Source of the DNA: Candidatus Heimdallarchaeota archaeon
GTDB taxonomy: Archaea; Asgardarchaeota; Heimdallarchaeia; Heimdallarchaeales; Heimdallarchaeaceae
NCBI GenBank assembly: GCA_016839945.1
Contig: JAEOTE010000102.1
Location: 1 to 20,666 of the forward strand
DNA length: 20,666 nucleotides
Direction of reading: 5' to 3'
Position 1 is the first letter of the stretch. Each line of letters begins with the position of its first letter. The notes under the pieces are model-generated. The model searched no databases and was not told the origin of the DNA. It saw only the letters and a list, made by a program, of their open reading frames with translations. Positions 3,146 through 20,666 of this stretch are shown in pieces. The position numbers and the translations under genes were made by a program.

Positions 3146-3988
3146 TTATTTTAGCATATTTTCTTTGAGTAATCTTTCTCTTTTTTCTCTTCTAGCGTTT
3201 TTCTCTTCATTCATAAATTTATCCAGCTTATTTTCTTGTTCTTTAGAATAATATTCACCTTTAGAATAGACAATATTCATACTTGATTCTTTCTTAGTTG
3301 ATTCCATCCCTTTGAGATTTACTTCAGGGTCTGCACATACAACATAAGACTTTTGTTTAGATTCTAATTGACCTAAGTCAACGCTTTTGATTTTATTTCT
3401 TTCAACTGAAATAGAGTTTAGTTTACTAAAATCAGAAATAGGTTTGAGATTTATTTTAGATAATAAATTATCTCCTAAATCTATCTCACGGATATTTTTA
3501 CAATCACTAAGAGCTTCTAGATTTATATCCTTAATTTCGTTGCTATACAATCTTAGTTCCTCTATGTTTGACCATTGTGTATGAGAATTAAATTTTACAA
3601 TTTTCAATAGATTATAATCCAGATTGAGTATTCTTAATTCCAAATTTTTACAAATGGAGATAAGATCTATTTCCAGAAGCAGATTGTTATGTAAGTTAAG
3701 TATTTCAAGTTGTTTGCAATTTTGGAGAGGACTTATATCCAATTCTATTAGACAATTATTACTAAGATCTAATTTCCTCAATTTAGGGCAATCTTTTAAA
3801 GGAGATAAGTCAATTTTTCGAATATTGTTTGAACTTATGTCCAGCTCTTGAAGGTTTTTACATTTCTTGAGAGATTTTAAAGAGATTTCTTCTAAACTGG
3901 CATTCGTAATAACAAGTTGATCAATATTTATGTCAATCTCAAATTGAAACTCACCAATATTGTCTCTACCAGTGATAATAGCTTTCAT
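3146..3988 (-). CDS. Leucine-rich repeat protein (about 24-aa repeats, IDLSPLxxCxxLxxLxLxxNxL)
   Basis: About 7-8 tandem LRRs, e.g. KIDLSPLKDCPKLRKLDLSNNCL and ELDISPLQNCKQLEILNLHNNLL, then a charged helical tail. Start is either ATG 3988 or TTG 3994. Confidence 0.9.
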   Translation of the reverse strand: MKAIITGRDNIGEFQFEIDINIDQLVITNASLEEISLKSLKKCKNLQELDISSNNIRKIDLSPLKDCPKLRKLDLSNNCLIELDISPLQNCKQLEILNLHNNLLLEIDLISICKNLELRILNLDYNLLKIVKFNSHTQWSNIEELRLYSNEIKDINLEALSDCKNIREIDLGDNLLSKINLKPISDFSKLNSISVERNKIKSVDLGQLESKQKSYVVCADPEVNLKGMESTKKESSMNIVYSKGEYYSKEQENKLDKFMNEEKNARREKRERLLKENMLK

Positions 3989-4113
3989 ACCCAATCAAAC
4001 CAGATTAAATTGACTTGAATCTATTTTAAATATCCTCAATTATTTACAAGAACGAACTGATTTAAGTCTGTTTCTATGCTAATTTTAAAAAGTGAAAAAT
4101 CTTTCTTTTTCTC

Positions 4114-7545: not shown

Positions 7546-9642
7546 ATGGTGAATGTTTTATCACAAATCAAGAATATCTTTATTTCTCCACACAAGTTAG
7601 TCAAAATACAGATTCCTAAAGAACAAACACACAAATTTCTGATAAAGATAGATGTATCAGATTTCTTCACTCAAACTGTAGTTGATCCTCAAAATCCAAA
7701 AGAACAAGCTCTAATTCAAGAATTTATAGATCAGTTAGAGGACAAACGTTCACGCTTAGTGGATATAAGCTATAAGCTTAATATTCCTGTTTCTATTGAT
7801 TTTGAGTTAAAACTAGAAGAGGATGAATATCCGGCTAATATGAATCTATTATCGAAAGAAATTGATCAATTTCTGTCAGAAAATGAAGAAACAATTTCAT
7901 CTTTGTACCAAAAATTACATCTCCTGAAAAAGGAAGAAAGAGTTCTTTCATCTATATCTCTTTTACAGAAGAAAACAAAAGAAGAAAATTTCTCAATTAA
8001 TTTATTATCTTCAAATTTTCAAACTCATACTTTTATTGGAGAAATCCCTGCATCATATGAAGAAGTTATACGCTTCTATCTTACTGAACTTACAGGAGGA
8101 AAATTGTTCTTCTGGGTTACTGAAACTGATGTAAAAGAGAAAAAAACCTTGATGTGTATTTCGCTTATAGACTATAAAGATCAGATTGAGGAAATATTAA
8201 ATGAAAATCTTTTTGATTCAACAGAGCTTGATATTACTTTTCTAAAATCTCTTGATGCTTTCAAAGAATCTTCAAATATCGAAGATCTTTACTCTAGTGT
8301 TTCAAAAGACATCAGTGCAATTGAAAAGGAGTTAGAGAACTTTTCCTCTAAATATAATGAAAAAATAATACAATTTATTAAATCATCACATATAGCTTTA
8401 GAGTTGTTATCTTTTGAAGAGAAGGGAAGAACAACAGATAAAGAGTTTACAATTTGGGGCTGGGTAAAAAGAAACAATATTGATAAATTCAAGAAAGATC
8501 TTGATTCATTGGAATTCAAATCTAAAATGCTTATTTTAGAAGATGTTCCTTTCCCATACAAAAAATCAAAAGAAATAATAGAAAAAGATATTTTTCAACC
8601 CTCAGATTATCTAGTTGAAACAAAGGAAGAACAACACATAGCTCATTTATCTAATAGGGGTGTTGGAGTCAAAGGTGGATTTATGTTTCCTAAAAAGGCT
8701 TCTTTTGTTAAATTAGAAACCTCTGAAAAATATTCCAGGAATTTTATTTCATTTATACATTCCCAAAATACTATTCACCCAATTAAGATTGGCTCTCAGA
8801 AAGCAGAAAAAGCAGACCAATTACTTACTCTTAAACAAGAATTAACACAATATAATTCAAGAATAAGAAAGCTAAAAGATAACTTTGATTTTGCGGAGGA
8901 AAAGGAAAAAACCAAATCAAAGTTTCAATTAGTAGATGAATATTCACACTCAAAAGCATTTATTGAGAATTTCCTAAGAGAGCATGAAAAACAAGTTACA
9001 GAGATTTTCTCAGATTATAACCAACTTAAGAAGAAATTAGAACAAATTGAATTAATTTTACCTTTTGAAGAAGAATTAAGAAAGAAAGAGCTAAGCTTAA
9101 CTCTGATTGAAGGAGGTTTTCAAACTAAAACTTATGTTGGTTCAATTCCTAAAAATCATTTCAAAGCAGCAAATTTCTTCTTAAAAGAAGTTACTGATGA
9201 CAATATCTTATTCTGGTCTTCTGATTCAACCGATCCAAAACGAAATGAAAAAAATATACTCTTATTATCATTAGAAGACTATGAAGCAGCAGTTTCTCGA
9301 GTTCTAAATGAATATTCTTTCCAACCTTTAGAATTTGATCAAGCCCTTCTTCAAGAAAAACAGGCTCTGAACGAAATTAGAAAAGAGTTACTAAAAGAAA
9401 TTGAACAGAAAGAAGCTGAAATAGAACAAATTAGTGATGCAATATCTGAAAAACTATCCGCAGCTTCTGAATTAATAGAGATAGAACTAGAAAGAATATC
9501 TACAGAAGAAATTTGTCAATTTGTAGAAAATAAAATGACACTGTGGGGTTGGATACCTGCAGATTGTTTAAAGAAATTGTATAAAGCAAAGAATAAGTTA
9601 GATTATGAGCTAGAAATCACTCTTACAGAAGATGTACCTCTA
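7546..9642 (+). repeat. Intragenic tandem protein-domain duplication (aa ~1-336 and ~380-699 of subunit I)
   Basis: Matching motifs at near-constant offset: FQT at nt 8017/9118 (367 aa), WGW at 8455/9544 (363 aa), EDVP at 8539/9628 (363 aa). The DNA is diverged, so the duplication is old. Confidence 0.88.
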
Positions 9643-10725
9643 GTTAATCCCTCTATAACCAAAAAAGGAAAAGTGTTTAAATCAATAAGAGGAATAATTG
9701 GGGGAATGGGAGAACCAAATCCCCATGAAATAGACCCCTATTCAATTGTAAGATTCACCTTTCCATTATTGTTTGGTATAATGTTTGCTGATGTTGGACA
9801 CGGTTTGATGTTAGCCTTAATTGGAGCTTTCTTGGTATTTAGAAAGCGAAGAAAGAAAATTAAACCTGATGAATCAATCACCGGCTATTTGTACAGTGGT
9901 GCTGAACTTCTAGTTATTTGTGGAATAGCTGCAACGATTTTCGGCTTTTTCTTTGGTTCAATTCTAGGCGATGAAAAATTAATCCCTGAACTTATGCACA
10001 ATATTGGTATTGATTGGATTCCACTTATTAATCCATTACATGACACTCAAATCTTTCTTACATTCTCAATTGCAGTTGGTTTTGTAATGATGCAAGTTGG
10101 TATCTGGCTAAAATTCATTCAAAATATGAAATATGGTCATGGTTTCGCATCAAAAATAGCTCCTGTTTTACTCTCTTTATTCTATGTTGGAATTTTTGCT
10201 GTTCTATATACAATTATAGGAGCAAATGTTGCATCTCATGCTCATGAAGGTTTAATTAAGGAAGGATTTATTCTACCTCCAATACCTGGTTTCAACTACA
10301 TTGTCATTGTAACTATTGCTCTTATTCCAATACTTTTCATTGTGGAGTATTTGCATGCAAAGGCAGAAGGAATTATGGATGCAATTGATCATATAATTGC
10401 TCTATTTTCAAATACACTGTCATTCTCACGATTAATGGCATTATTATTAGTTCATGCAATATTGAGTGGAATTCCATTTACTTTAATGGGTTATAATTTG
10501 GCAGTAGTAAGTCCATTAACAGAATCTGCAGCAAACTGGATTATTGGGATAGTATTTGGTCTATTTCTAATAGTACCTCTAGAAGGATTACTTTCTTTCT
10601 TAAACAGCTTGCGTTTACACTGGGTTGAATGGTTCTCCAAGTTTTATGTAGGAGATGGTAAACCTTACACTCCAATTATTGAACAACTAAAACACATTGA
10701 ATTTGTATCAGCTAAAGGTAGTTAA
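7546..10725 (+). CDS. atpI: A/V-type ATP synthase subunit I (V-ATPase subunit a homolog) with tandemly duplicated N-terminal soluble domain
   Basis: The membrane domain has EIDP, FPLLFGIMFADVGHG, the essential Arg in SNTLSFSRLMAL, and LRLHWVEWFSKFY.GDGKPYTP. The protein is 1059 aa against about 650-700 typical for prokaryotes, and carries two copies of the N-terminal domain (FQTHTFIGEIP/FQTKTYVGSIP, TIWGWV/TLWGWI, EDVPF/EDVPL). Confidence 0.95.
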   Translation: MVNVLSQIKNIFISPHKLVKIQIPKEQTHKFLIKIDVSDFFTQTVVDPQNPKEQALIQEFIDQLEDKRSRLVDISYKLNIPVSIDFELKLEEDEYPANMNLLSKEIDQFLSENEETISSLYQKLHLLKKEERVLSSISLLQKKTKEENFSINLLSSNFQTHTFIGEIPASYEEVIRFYLTELTGGKLFFWVTETDVKEKKTLMCISLIDYKDQIEEILNENLFDSTELDITFLKSLDAFKESSNIEDLYSSVSKDISAIEKELENFSSKYNEKIIQFIKSSHIALELLSFEEKGRTTDKEFTIWGWVKRNNIDKFKKDLDSLEFKSKMLILEDVPFPYKKSKEIIEKDIFQPSDYLVETKEEQHIAHLSNRGVGVKGGFMFPKKASFVKLETSEKYSRNFISFIHSQNTIHPIKIGSQKAEKADQLLTLKQELTQYNSRIRKLKDNFDFAEEKEKTKSKFQLVDEYSHSKAFIENFLREHEKQVTEIFSDYNQLKKKLEQIELILPFEEELRKKELSLTLIEGGFQTKTYVGSIPKNHFKAANFFLKEVTDDNILFWSSDSTDPKRNEKNILLLSLEDYEAAVSRVLNEYSFQPLEFDQALLQEKQALNEIRKELLKEIEQKEAEIEQISDAISEKLSAASELIEIELERISTEEICQFVENKMTLWGWIPADCLKKLYKAKNKLDYELEITLTEDVPLVNPSITKKGKVFKSIRGIIGGMGEPNPHEIDPYSIVRFTFPLLFGIMFADVGHGLMLALIGAFLVFRKRRKKIKPDESITGYLYSGAELLVICGIAATIFGFFFGSILGDEKLIPELMHNIGIDWIPLINPLHDTQIFLTFSIAVGFVMMQVGIWLKFIQNMKYGHGFASKIAPVLLSLFYVGIFAVLYTIIGANVASHAHEGLIKEGFILPPIPGFNYIVIVTIALIPILFIVEYLHAKAEGIMDAIDHIIALFSNTLSFSRLMALLLVHAILSGIPFTLMGYNLAVVSPLTESAANWIIGIVFGLFLIVPLEGLLSFLNSLRLHWVEWFSKFYVGDGKPYTPIIEQLKHIEFVSAKGS

Positions 10726-10726
10726 A

Positions 10727-11710
10727 ATGTCAGTCGGTGATGTGAGTTATTTACTTGGACGAGCTCATGGTATTATTAGTAATGTCCTAACAAAATCCAA
10801 CATTAGCTTACTTTTAGCCTCTAATAATCTCACTGAATTAAGAGCTGCTTTTACTCAAACCCACTATGATACAATTATAGGGGATCTTAATTTCGAAACT
10901 CAATTATCAGAAGTAGCTAGAAAACTTAAGAATTCTTTTTCAGAAATTGTGGTTAAATTCCATAACCAATCCTCCTCATCTTTGAAAAAGAAAATAAGAT
11001 TTTTCAGTGAAAGATATAATGCAGAAAATCTGCGAATAGTTCTTCATGGACTCCATGTTGGAATGAAGCATGAAGACATTATTGCACGTATTATTCCTGT
11101 AGCAGGATATTCATTAGATTATTACTCCAATTTATTATCAAAATCTATTCCAGATATCATTTCAATTCAAAAAGACACATCATTACTTAGAAGTCTTCGT
11201 AGAGCCTTTGAAGAATTTAAAAACACAGATAGGTTTACTCCAATTGAGTCTGCATTGGATCAATATGTCTATCAAGTTCTCCCTAAGGTTTCTAACTATT
11301 ATGAAACTTATGTAAATATGAAGAATATAATCGCTTTATGCCGTTGTATTACTTTAAACATCCCTGCTTATCGATACATATTACCTAATAAATTCATAGC
11401 TAAATCTCTGAATGCTGATTCTATTTCTGAAGTCTTGGAAAATTATAATTACCCACCTTATCGCGCAGTATTTTCTCAATATATTGGTCAAAAAGAAATT
11501 CCCTTACATGATTTAGAATTTGCAGTTGAAAGATTTCTTCTAAGAAAATGGAGGAAAATCTTTCGATTTGGAACTGTGTTAGAATCTGATTCAATAATTG
11601 GTTTTTTCGAGCTGAAATTAGCAGAGACAATGGATCTTATTAGAATAATTGTAGGAATTAACGCAAGTTTTAGTGAACAAGAAATACGAGAAAGTTTGTT
11701 ATTTTATTAA
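10727..11710 (+). CDS. atpC: A/V-type ATP synthase subunit C (V-ATPase subunit d homolog)
   Basis: YLLGRAHG..LT...LL....L.EL...F.QTHY, YNAENLRIVLHG, IESALDQY, FFELKLAE..DLIRIIVGI. About 327 aa from ATG 10727, 1 nt after the atpI stop, with SD AAGGT upstream. Confidence 0.85.
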   Translation: MSVGDVSYLLGRAHGIISNVLTKSNISLLLASNNLTELRAAFTQTHYDTIIGDLNFETQLSEVARKLKNSFSEIVVKFHNQSSSSLKKKIRFFSERYNAENLRIVLHGLHVGMKHEDIIARIIPVAGYSLDYYSNLLSKSIPDIISIQKDTSLLRSLRRAFEEFKNTDRFTPIESALDQYVYQVLPKVSNYYETYVNMKNIIALCRCITLNIPAYRYILPNKFIAKSLNADSISEVLENYNYPPYRAVFSQYIGQKEIPLHDLEFAVERFLLRKWRKIFRFGTVLESDSIIGFFELKLAETMDLIRIIVGINASFSEQEIRESLLFY

Positions 11711-11769: not shown

Positions 11770-12156
11770 TTAAACGGAATTCAGAACATCTATAGTTTCT
11801 GGTACATTTTGTTTAATAATTTGCATTGCTAAACCAACATTATGCAAATCACGACTAGCACCTATTAAGATATATTCTCCTGCACCAGCTAGAATAGTAA
11901 AACCTTCCTCACCTCTAATTAAAACCTGTTCTAAATCTCCATGAGCTAAATTTCCTGTAACCATTTTTCCTGTAGATAATATTGCAGAGGAAACTGCACT
12001 CAGAAGATCGGGGTCTGTTCCTTTTTCGGAAAAGAAGGCTACTTTAATTCCTTCAGCATTTACAACAGCCAATGCTTCCAAATCGCACCCTAATGATATT
12101 TTCTTCAAAATTCGTACTAATTGTTTTCTTTGTCCTGCGGATAAATCTATTGACAT
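11770..12156 (-). CDS. Roadblock/LC7 (MglB/LAMTOR2-like) domain protein
   Basis: 128 aa with AVVNAEG, DPDLLSAVSSAILS, GDLEQVLIRGEEGFTIL, NVGLA; GGTGA SD upstream. Confidence 0.92.
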   Translation of the reverse strand: MSIDLSAGQRKQLVRILKKISLGCDLEALAVVNAEGIKVAFFSEKGTDPDLLSAVSSAILSTGKMVTGNLAHGDLEQVLIRGEEGFTILAGAGEYILIGASRDLHNVGLAMQIIKQNVPETIDVLNSV

Positions 12157-17540: not shown

Positions 17541-18941
17541 TTGCCTGCTATAGCTAATTGTAGTTTTTGTAGTAGTCCTGCTCAATACTATTGTAAATCA
17601 TGTAAGAGGAAACTATGTACAGATCACATAATAAAATCAAACACAGTGTATTTCTGTAATAATTGCGATGAAGAATGCCACGATCCTAAATGTTCAAAGT
17701 GTGGAACTGAAGCTGACTTTACAAGACATGAACCAATATTAAGATGTGATTGGTGCAAATCTATTGAAGTAGAAGATGGATTACTTTACCATCAACAATT
17801 ACCTCAACTAATTTTTTCTTCAGTTACTACTTTAAACAAAAAACTTTCACAGGTTTGGGATTTAACTCAACAATATCTTGACTTAGTCAAATCTGTATAT
17901 GAGATGAGAAAAGCAAAAATTATGCTATTTGGTAGCATTGAAGATGAAATTTCTCTTTTAAGAGGAAAAATATCTACTTTTATAGATCACTTGGTCAAAT
18001 TTGAAAATGAAACTTTTACAATGATTGATGACAAACTTAAAGCTATTGGATATATGAGATACTCAAATCTTAATAATGTTGAAAGAGCTGAAGAGATTCT
18101 CAATTTGCTAGAAAGTAGGTCAAATTTATTGGACGGAACTTTAGAAAATAAATTTGGTGATATTGAGATTGATTTCAAAAAACTAAATCAAAAAGTCAAT
18201 TATGTCGACTTTCAATATCGCATTCTTAATAAAATCCACGAACTTCTACCAGAAGATCAAGAAGAGGAACTTATCTCCATTATCCCTCGTATTTGGTTAA
18301 GAAAAAATAGTGGGTTACCAAAGAAATTTCTATTAGTTTTAACAACAAAAAATCTCTATTTGTTAAGAGAAAAAGGACTTCTTAATGTGAAGCTCAAAAA
18401 CAAGGAAACAATTAGTCTATCATATATAGTGAAAAAACAGTATAGACAAAGCTTGATAACAAAAAAGAAATTTAGATTTAAAACAAGACTAGATTCTTAT
18501 TCAATTTTTGGGAGAAAGGAAAGCATAGATCAGCTCCAAACCTACTTTAAGATAATTGGCGATTATATTGATTATTCCATAAACAAATCTTCAATTATAG
18601 AAGATTTGAAGTATTATTCATTAACAATTAATGAGTTAAAGAGTAATATACAAAGAAATCTTAACCACCTTAGAGCATATCTTCTGAACAAGAAAGAACT
18701 GAAGCGTGAATTGTATTGGAGGGAAGGACAAGATGCTAAATTTAAGAAGCTCTTCGAGCAATTACTTGCTGTTGAGAGAAAAATTCATAGACTCACACAA
18801 TCAAGAAATTACAACTCTCCAGGGACACGAGGAATTGATGGTCTTCTTAGAAAATTAACGAGAGAACATAATAGGCTCAAAAAAGAGTTAGAGGATATAA
18901 GAAGAAAAAGCGACGAATTTGATGATGTGTGGGAATTTTGA
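17541..18941 (+). CDS. Hypothetical protein: B-box-like Zn finger, Zn ribbons, long coiled coil, PH-like domain, C-terminal coiled coil
   Basis: TTG start with AGGTG SD at 5 nt spacing. CSFC-x7-CKSC-x4-CTDH, then CNNC, CSKC, CDWC; helical heptads at aa ~90-235; beta-rich LLVLTTKNLYLL...FRFKT...SIFG plus a helix, resembling PH/GRAM. Confidence 0.8.
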   Translation: MPAIANCSFCSSPAQYYCKSCKRKLCTDHIIKSNTVYFCNNCDEECHDPKCSKCGTEADFTRHEPILRCDWCKSIEVEDGLLYHQQLPQLIFSSVTTLNKKLSQVWDLTQQYLDLVKSVYEMRKAKIMLFGSIEDEISLLRGKISTFIDHLVKFENETFTMIDDKLKAIGYMRYSNLNNVERAEEILNLLESRSNLLDGTLENKFGDIEIDFKKLNQKVNYVDFQYRILNKIHELLPEDQEEELISIIPRIWLRKNSGLPKKFLLVLTTKNLYLLREKGLLNVKLKNKETISLSYIVKKQYRQSLITKKKFRFKTRLDSYSIFGRKESIDQLQTYFKIIGDYIDYSINKSSIIEDLKYYSLTINELKSNIQRNLNHLRAYLLNKKELKRELYWREGQDAKFKKLFEQLLAVERKIHRLTQSRNYNSPGTRGIDGLLRKLTREHNRLKKELEDIRRKSDEFDDVWEF

Positions 18942-19289: not shown

Positions 19290-19661
19290 TTACTTCTCCC
19301 AGACTCTAAGAAAGTCTGGCATTTTTTTGAAGCTTACAAGAGGAATGTTTAACCACTTAGGATCAGAAGCATCTTCAGTAAATTCTATTTCTTCAGAAGG
19401 TGATGTTCTATACCTGATAAACGAACCTTTGGGTTGTTCATTTTCTTCTACCCAAACAACAATAGGAAGTGCTGTTAGCTCATAGTAACCTATGCTTGTG
19501 TTAAAAATGAAGAAAATAGATCTACTATTATCTTTATAAAAACCTATATAGCCTGCAGCTCGATCAGGACCAACACTTGATATTACTAGTTTTATTAAAT
19601 CCTTAAGAGAACTTAATTCAATATTTGCTGGAGATTTTAGTTCAGTTGTTCCCTCTTTCAT
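19290..19661 (-). CDS. Conserved archaeal hypothetical protein, co-oriented downstream of atpK
   Basis: GAGGTG SD 6 nt before ATG 19661, so the track's GTG 19670 lies within the SD. Globular alpha/beta composition. From memory it resembles TACK 'cren protein' hypotheticals (unverified). Confidence 0.75.
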   Translation of the reverse strand: MKEGTTELKSPANIELSSLKDLIKLVISSVGPDRAAGYIGFYKDNSRSIFFIFNTSIGYYELTALPIVVWVEENEQPKGSFIRYRTSPSEEIEFTEDASDPKWLNIPLVSFKKMPDFLRVWEK

Positions 19662-19691
19662 TATCTTCACCTCTATAAGGAAGAGAGGAAA

Positions 19692-20000
19692 TTAGAGAAC
19701 TAGAAGTATTGCTACTAGAAGTCCATAGATTGCTACAGCCTCAATAAGCACAATAAAGAGAAAGGCTTTTCCAAAAACCTCTGGTTTTTCTGTAATTGCA
19801 CCTATAGCTGCACTACCAGCCATCCCCATTCCTATTGAAGAGCCTATTCCAGCAATACCTACAGCTAATCCTGCTCCAATAGGTTTCAAATCATTTGTAT
19901 CTCCATCTTGAGCGAAAGCTGTATCAGCTGCAAATACTACAATGCTTACTAAACACAATAATAAAATTGCATTTCTCAATAATCCTTTTTCTAAACGCAT
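19692..20000 (-). CDS. atpK: A/V-type ATP synthase subunit K (c, proteolipid), single hairpin with N-terminal signal-like extension
   Basis: IGAGLAVGIAGIGSSIGMG, AITEKPEVFGKAFLF, ion-binding Glu in LIEAVAIYGLL; AGGTGA SD at 20007-20012; start ATG 20000 or TTG 20003. Confidence 0.96.
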   Translation of the reverse strand: MRLEKGLLRNAILLLCLVSIVVFAADTAFAQDGDTNDLKPIGAGLAVGIAGIGSSIGMGMAGSAAIGAITEKPEVFGKAFLFIVLIEAVAIYGLLVAILLVL

Positions 20001-20118
20001 CAAATTTCACCTATTTTTCAAAGCAAAATTTCTTATACGAATTTAAGAATTTCGAAATGGCATTAAGAATTAAAACTAACAATTAAAATTGAATTAAAAA
20101 CAATACATATAATAACTA

Positions 20119-20163: not shown

Positions 20164-20666
20164 ATGTTTCGAAATTTCATGGGATGGCTATTAGGCACAC
20201 AAAAGAGTCCTCGTGACCATATTATAAATCTTCGATTAACTGTAAGAAGATTAGAAAGAGCACAAAGGAAACTTGAACGTGATGAGTCTAAAATGCAATT
20301 AAAAATGAAACAAACTATACAACGAGGCGATTTAGAATCAGCTCGGTTGTTTGCTACTGATATTGTAAGGAATAGAAGATGGGAACTAGGTTATCAGAAA
20401 CTAGTTTCACGAATAAACGGACTGATATTCAAACTTGAACGTGCAGATACTGCTGCAAGTATGGCAGAGGAGATGCATGGAGTTGCAAATGCTTTAAGAG
20501 CAGCTAATGCGCAATTACAAATTCCCGACCTAGACAAGGTAATCCAAGATATGGAAATTTCAATTGATGGAATAGAAGAATCAACAGGTACTATTGAAGA
20601 CGGTATTGATGATTTACTAATTGCAGATACTGATCCTTCAGAAGTCGACCGATTAATTGAACAAAC
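20164..20666 (+). CDS. ESCRT-III / Snf7-family protein, Vps2/Vps24/Vps46 (CHMP1-3-like) class; truncated by the window edge
   Basis: Manual translation is open to the window end: MFRNFMGWLLGTQKSPRDHIINLRLTVRRLERAQRKLERDESKMQLKMKQTIQRGDLESARLFATDIVRNRR...SRINGLIFKLERA...MAEEMHGVANALRAANAQLQIPDLDKVIQDME...IEDGIDD...DPSEVDRLIEQ. It has a basic helical hairpin, an acidic C-terminal half and the G...AR.FA...VR pattern of CHMP1/2/3. Confidence 0.92.
   Translation, partial: MFRNFMGWLLGTQKSPRDHIINLRLTVRRLERAQRKLERDESKMQLKMKQTIQRGDLESARLFATDIVRNRRWELGYQKLVSRINGLIFKLERADTAASMAEEMHGVANALRAANAQLQIPDLDKVIQDMEISIDGIEESTGTIEDGIDDLLIADTDPSEVDRLIEQ

Follow-up and report, generated by a model that had tools for sequence, protein, structure and literature searches.

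An A/V-ATPase subunit I with a duplicated N-terminal domain is conserved in the archaeal family Heimdallarchaeaceae

Introduction

A gene at positions 7546..10725 (+ strand) of contig JAEOTE010000102.1, from the Candidatus Heimdallarchaeota archaeon assembly GCA_016839945.1, encodes a subunit I of the rotary A/V-ATPase (P0001) in which the stalk-anchoring N-terminal (NT) domain is present twice, and it raises the question of where the extra domain came from and what it adds to the enzyme. The number and anchoring of peripheral stalks constitute the main structural difference between the prokaryotic A/V-ATPases, which have two stalks, and the eukaryotic V-ATPases, which have three together with a C/H collar. 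In the former, two EG stalks attach through their N-termini to the two lobes of the NT domain of subunit I (I-NT); in the latter, the third stalk is held by subunit C, and A3B3 can accommodate three stalks at most. An earlier note on the same DNA proposed that the extra domain could be a covalently attached precursor of subunit C, and that fission of such a gene would yield eukaryotic subunits C and a. Here, we analyzed the whole 20,666-nucleotide stretch carrying the gene (hereafter the window) together with related genomes and proteins. We find that the doubled-NT form of this familiar subunit is genuine, conserved and apparently undescribed, the literature searched having yielded no account of two NT domains in subunit I, and that the doubling is a family-specific innovation which parallels subunit C and is not a fossil of its origin.

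Results

The open reading frame (ORF) runs without a stop through 1059 codons up to its terminator, as the earlier note had read it. It encodes, in order, NT copy 1, the extra stator-arm domain (amino acids (aa) 14–341; 7585..8568, +), a linker (aa 342–384; 8569..8697, +), NT copy 2, the arm at the ancestral position joined straight to the membrane domain (aa 385–715; 8698..9690, +), and the membrane domain with the ion half-channel (aa 716–1059; 9691..10722, +). The Pfam family PF01496 (V_ATPase_I) matched the protein with 136.2 bits at a cut-off of 30.7, over aa 394–807 and the C-terminus, that is, over copy 2 and the membrane domain only; single-NT orthologues likewise align from about aa 380 on. 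No Pfam match was found in the first 345 residues because copy 1 is too diverged to be recognized. When copy 1 (aa 1–360) was compared directly with copy 2 (aa 361–730), BLASTP returned an E value of 2e-28 with 28% identity over 233 aa, and the alignment of profiles built from 25 family members for each copy (hhalign) extended over 313 columns, essentially the whole domain, with a probability of 99.9% and an E value of 2.6e-37. This similarity is far beyond chance, and the arrangement is a tandem duplication of a complete NT domain of ~330 aa. All five motif pairs listed in the earlier note are present, but their offset is 363–369 aa rather than 363–367, the VKI/VKL pair lying at 369; the linker of ~43 aa and the single intact membrane domain with its essential Arg were both borne out.

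The structure of copy 1 was modelled with AlphaFold2 (AF2) from the copy 1 alignment, with a predicted local distance difference test score (pLDDT) of 84.5 and a predicted template-modelling score (pTM) of 0.75. In this model the chain forms a beta-alpha-beta unit, continues through a long helix into a distal alpha/beta lobe and returns along another long helix into the first lobe, giving a predicted architecture of proximal and distal alpha/beta lobes with a long helical hairpin between them. In the full-length model, copy 2 repeats the secondary-structure order of copy 1 element for element, multiple transmembrane (TM) helices are predicted in the C-terminal domain, and the linker has a pLDDT below 50 and is predicted to be a flexible tether. 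The linker-region alignment shows that this tether carries the conserved motifs HLSHRG and GGF(L/M)FPKK, with G372, F381 and K384 invariant. Foldseek searches of the PDB with the copy 1 model returned subunit a/I first (6o7u chain a, E 6e-12; 6r0z chain N; 3rrk; 9det chain a, TM score 0.64), with subunit C ranking lower (1u7l, E 5e-7, TM score 0.28), and the neighbours of the model in the ESM Atlas were V_ATPase_I clusters (TM scores 0.57–0.60). The closest structural relatives of copy 1 are thus a/I-NT domains and not subunit C. Copy 1 is an a/I-NT domain, as the earlier note expected, and it resembles subunit C only in the general way in which the two folds are known to resemble each other.

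Also among the Atlas results were 75 hypothetical proteins of bacteria (Bacillota), ~330 aa long and grouped in one cluster, that resemble the copy 1 model (TM scores 0.54/0.56 over 245 residues). They have no Pfam family in common and may represent I-NT-like proteins that stand alone in bacteria.

The membrane domain matches solved a/I subunits, with E values of 4.5e-21 for human a4, 4.6e-16 for yeast Vph1, 4e-9 for Enterococcus hirae NtpI and 4e-4 for Thermus thermophilus I. Its Arg962 (codon 10429..10431, +), counterpart of the essential stator Arg, is invariant across 25 homologues and, in the alignment with human a4, is matched by the Arg of the motif SYLRLWALSLAH. Because every defining feature that could be tested is present, namely the PF01496 match, a polytopic membrane domain with the Arg, an NT domain of lobe–coiled-coil–lobe form and rotary-ATPase gene neighbours, the 1059-aa protein belongs to the subunit I/a family, from which it departs in having the NT domain twice. 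The known members have one, both in prokaryotes (T. thermophilus subunit I, PDB 6r0z/5gar chain N; Meiothermus ruber I-NT, 3rrk; ~650–730 aa) and in eukaryotes (subunit a, as in yeast Vph1/Stv1 and human a1–a4). Other archaeal subunits I are closer relatives than is eukaryotic subunit a (130–170 vs. 79 bits).

We next consider whether copy 1 is maintained. Among 25 proteins that are 41–91% identical to copy 1, 45 positions are invariant and 20 nearly so, and all six columns that are invariant in a 30-sequence NT alignment are kept in copy 1. In comparison with the closest relative (genome G038; Nei–Gojobori), the ratio of nonsynonymous to synonymous substitution rates (dN/dS) decreased from copy 1 (0.18) through copy 2 (0.11) to the membrane domain (0.06), values that are rough because dS, at 1.2–1.7, is near saturation. 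Judged from these substitution patterns, copy 1 is under purifying selection and functional, although somewhat less constrained than copy 2. It also has an invariant motif of its own, IVDPQSPKEQARIQ (aa 44–58), which is missing from copy 2 and from single-NT relatives.

Two explanations that would make the extra arm dispensable or unreal bear directly on these data. One is that the gene yields two products, the long form and a canonical form of ~680 aa started internally at Met380 (window position 8683), the extra arm being optional. An in-frame ATG does follow AAAGGTGGA just ahead of copy 2 (window 8671–8685), but most of the 25 homologues have Leu (15) or Phe (4) in this column and only 6 have Met, and the Shine-Dalgarno-like GGTGGA is simply the codons of a conserved Gly-Gly; for these two reasons an internal-start isoform is not a conserved feature, and with copy 1 under purifying selection family-wide we regard it as improbable. 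The other is that the double domain is an assembly artefact or a decaying pseudo-duplication. Nothing was found in its favour: the source is a fragmented metagenome-assembled genome of 186 contigs, 88% complete, but the ORF has no stops, dN/dS is well below 1, and the same architecture in a frame of ~1040–1075 aa recurs in 28 other genomes, two of them single-contig, and in many independent metagenomes, with ~43 clusters of full-length double-NT proteins (1036–1076 aa) from independent samples. Since the arrangement recurs in these genomes and clusters, mis-assembly is excluded, and we give the artefact explanation practically no weight.

To define the distribution of the double form, a copy 1 profile was searched in 400 Asgard genomes, two profile matches within one frame of ~1040–1071 aa being scored as double. 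It was found in 28 of the 30 genomes of Heimdallarchaeaceae (f1), including two closed single-contig genomes, and by genus in 23/24 (g1), 2/2 (g2), 1/1 (g3), 2/2 (g5) and 0/1 (g4). Of the two genomes lacking it, G027 (82% complete) gave no double-NT match with E and G present, and in G014 none of the I, E and G queries matched. None of the ~370 Asgard genomes outside the family, other Heimdallarchaeia included, had the double form; in the remaining families, whether in the same order, the same class or elsewhere in the phylum, the proteins are single-NT and 684–732 aa long, or there was no match at threshold. The homologues of the doubled subunit carry the label Heimdallarchaeaceae or Heimdallarchaeota. 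When 1.84 billion representative proteins were scanned with HMMER for a mixed NT profile, 1171 relatives were returned, among which only four full-length and one truncated representative were double-NT. As to standalone copy-1 proteins, there were four short matches, all on contigs of 1–3.4 kb or labelled partial, and copy 1 was always fused; short matches to the NT profile mostly end mid-domain or in TM1. One further relative with three profile stretches (P0131, 971 aa) had no significant internal repeat by BLASTP.

In a separate lineage, the subunit I P0145 (835 aa; L098:6001-8508) contains a partial repeat of the distal NT region (aa 81–235 vs. 286–440, E 2e-17); its locus, in which I-c stand with E-A-B-D-d on the opposite strand, belongs to an unrelated archaeal A-type ATPase. 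Because this partial repeat is independent, elaboration of the stator arm has taken place at least twice, which suggests that the arm is a recurrent site of such change.

The age of the duplication was addressed by maximum likelihood (IQ-TREE, LG+C20+F+G4 with posterior mean site frequencies (PMSF); 55 NT sequences, 346 columns). Eukaryotic a-NT and subunit C are not part of this tree, the former because no eukaryotic sequence ranked among the best profile matches (see below), the latter because it offers no alignable sequence. Copies 1 and 2 together form one clade (support 100/99) nested among single-NT orthologues, in which copy 1 is monophyletic (100/100) on a stem of length 1.11 and copy 2 is monophyletic (94/58) on a stem of 0.15, and the order of genera is identical within the two subtrees. 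The nearest outgroups are P0047, a 674-aa single-NT protein encoded in an I-d pair, then P0056, and then the clade of the sister families f3 and f4. An old-duplication topology, with copy 2 forced together with the 16 nearest single-NT sequences, was rejected by the approximately unbiased (AU) test (delta lnL 185.7, p-AU 0.00017), for a test group that was chosen after inspection of the tree. Pairwise scores run the same way: copy 1 vs. copy 2 averages 81 bits, single NT vs. copy 2 45–63 and single NT vs. copy 1 37–50. Copy 2 has evolved slowly at its ancestral position next to the membrane domain; copy 1 was fast after the duplication and has since been held by purifying selection. The duplication is lineage-specific, having occurred on the stem of Heimdallarchaeaceae before the divergence of the family's genera. 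Heimdallarchaeaceae are grouped with Kariarchaeaceae in the order Heimdallarchaeales, and Hodarchaeales, reported to be closest to eukaryotes, form a separate order (PMC13037920; 10.1101/2024.07.04.601786). Owing to this placement and to the nested tree position, the duplication is derived within the family.

These results bear on the proposal that the fused domain is a proto-subunit C from which gene fission produced eukaryotic C and a. The unusual architecture stands; the proposed descent does not. No sign was found that subunit C shares descent with copy 1 but not with copy 2, the copies being each other's sisters among the single-NT orthologues and the older split rejected, and for these reasons the idea is not supported. 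The double form is confined to one family; copy 1 is closer to a-NT than to C; no eukaryotic sequence occurs among the best 150 NT-profile matches or the best 120 membrane-domain matches; and the rotor c subunit is of the single-hairpin A type. Eukaryotic V1 subunit C (yeast Vma5, 1u7l; EG-C head complex, 4dl0) is moreover free-standing and soluble, unlike copy 1. No match to PF03223 (V-ATPase_C) was found in copy 1; the best one in the whole genome lies on another contig and, with an E value of 0.23, does not reach the cut-off. Searches of the PDB with profiles of copy 1, of copy 2 and of mixed NT sequences gave only noise-level matches (3rrk, E 0.07; Stv1, E 1.5), and no chain of subunit C was among them at E<=10. 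Copy 1 does not belong to the subunit C family, and we consider the precursor proposal very unlikely. The survey and the tree reveal the lineage-specific duplication that the earlier note itself had named as refuting its link to subunit C, with the architecture unaffected.

The genomic setting places the doubled subunit within an otherwise recognizable enzyme. The gene for subunit d (archaeal C, AC39; 10728..11710, +; PF01992, E 2e-30) starts 2 nt past the stop of subunit I, and that for the proteolipid c subunit (19692..20003, −; PF00137, E 8e-21), a single hairpin with one carboxylate (...IVLIEAVAIYG...), lies 9 kb away inside the window; in sister families the orthologous c adjoins I-d. The order I-d(-c) is kept in single-NT orthologues, and the I-d pair occurs in double-NT and single-NT relatives alike. 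Whereas prokaryotic A/V-ATPase genes usually stand in one archaeal operon, those of the double-NT enzyme are scattered over the chromosome: contig C9 carries D, A-B and the G-like gene (7981-8289) with F next after it, contig C62 carries E (75278-75922), and in the two closed g5 genomes the I, G and E genes are hundreds of kb apart. The accompanying set comprises one E gene, one G-like gene and one single-hairpin c. The same dispersal of ATP synthase genes (I-d; c; E; G-F; A-B; D) was observed on this genome's contigs C9, C62 and C75 and in the closed genomes G015 and G016.

A second, compact operon is present on contig C177. Its genes A-B-D-Usp-E-I(674 aa)-c(155 aa) share one strand, F is encoded just upstream on the opposite strand, and a weak match to a G-like gene lies downstream, ~1 kb from c. 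Most g1 genomes and g3 have the operon-type subunit I; g2 and the closed g5 genomes lack it. The double-NT protein is the only subunit I in g2 and g5, and therefore the doubled form operates in a working ATP synthase there. Because of its single-hairpin c rotor and its being the sole enzyme in some genera, the double-NT enzyme is most likely an ATP synthase and not a dedicated pump.

Several neighbouring genes were examined as candidate subunits. A 454-aa ORF upstream of subunit A proved to encode a phosphoglucomutase, and the ORFs flanking subunit E on C62, considered as C- or H-like subunits, both encode membrane proteins without a Pfam match. One of the proteins on C62 is a small type-I membrane protein of 213 aa (L008:9923-10564, +) whose gene overlaps the stop of subunit E; it has a signal peptide, an ectodomain of ~150 aa, a C-terminal TM helix and a basic tail, and no Pfam match. 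A homologue (E 2e-7) is encoded between E and a single-NT subunit I in the sister-family genome G042 (L016:3490-4080, −). By analogy with eukaryotic Voa1/Ac45, this protein may be an accessory ATPase subunit.

Elsewhere in the window, a 126-aa ORF without a Pfam match (19290-19670, −) lies directly downstream of c on the same strand, and a Snf7 (ESCRT-III) gene on the opposite strand (20164-20664, +) has its start 160 nt upstream of c. Together with genes for actin (1-741, −; E 3e-78), a Roadblock/LC7 protein (11770-12156, −) and a leucine-rich-repeat protein (3146-3994, −), it belongs to a set of eukaryotic-signature genes typical of Asgard archaea. A 466-aa ORF without a Pfam family (17541-18941, +) is followed by one for a 99-aa zinc-ribbon protein.

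Discussion

The reading that we consider probable is that the protein is the native stator subunit I of an A-type synthase, the arm of which was duplicated on the Heimdallarchaeaceae stem, with copy 1 enlarging the collar. By analogy with single-NT enzymes, copy 2 would keep the ancestral job of anchoring two EG(H) peripheral stalks, and copy 1, on its leash of ~43 aa, would supply extra stalk-docking lobes. It might either tie a third EG stalk to the B subunit that is otherwise left free, or brace or regulate the existing stalks and the collar. In this capacity the extra arm would be a convergent analogue of the role that a separate subunit C plays in eukaryotes, and not its ancestor. The more specific proposal that the tethered arm recruits a third EG stalk, or closes the collar around the central stalk, in convergence with eukaryotes, is a possibility that we hold only tentatively. 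Prediction of a complex of copy 1 (25 alignment rows) with residues 1–110 of E (17 rows) and the G-like subunit (17 rows) gave scores of 0.24 and 0.22, under the 0.32 mark, which weigh neither way.

Several observations count against an enlarged collar. The relative placement of the arms is not confidently predicted (pTM of the full-length model, 0.43); only one E gene and one G gene accompany the subunit, and stalk stoichiometry cannot be read from a genome; and the private motif IVDPQSPKEQARIQ could mean a new partner rather than EG. To these we add the near-saturated dS and the late choice of the AU test group, as given above.

The motif leads to a different explanation, in which copy 1 is a regulatory or targeting module that docks no stalk and has a different partner, such as a lipid, the cytoskeleton, another complex or a second copy of the enzyme. 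The much longer stem of copy 1 than of copy 2 is consistent with this, as are the invariant and surface-type nature of a motif confined to copy 1, the predicted flexibility of the tether and, by analogy, the documented role of eukaryotic a-NT as a regulatory and signalling hub (PMC10313074). Set against this, copy 1 retains the entire two-lobed fold and every residue that is invariant family-wide, and its gene adjoins the usual d and c subunits, with none for a candidate partner linked to it. Keeping both sides in mind, we regard a module of this kind as conceivable but doubtful, and continue to favour a stator subunit with an enlarged collar.

If the third-stalk proposal is true, this would be the first rotary ATP synthase of a prokaryote to have three peripheral stalks, and an independent route to a subunit-C-type architecture would have been taken in the sole ATP synthase of archaea near the eukaryotic stem. 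A conserved natural enzyme with a doubled anchor also provides a test case for how a stator gains further elements and for what such additions do to coupling, stiffness or regulation.

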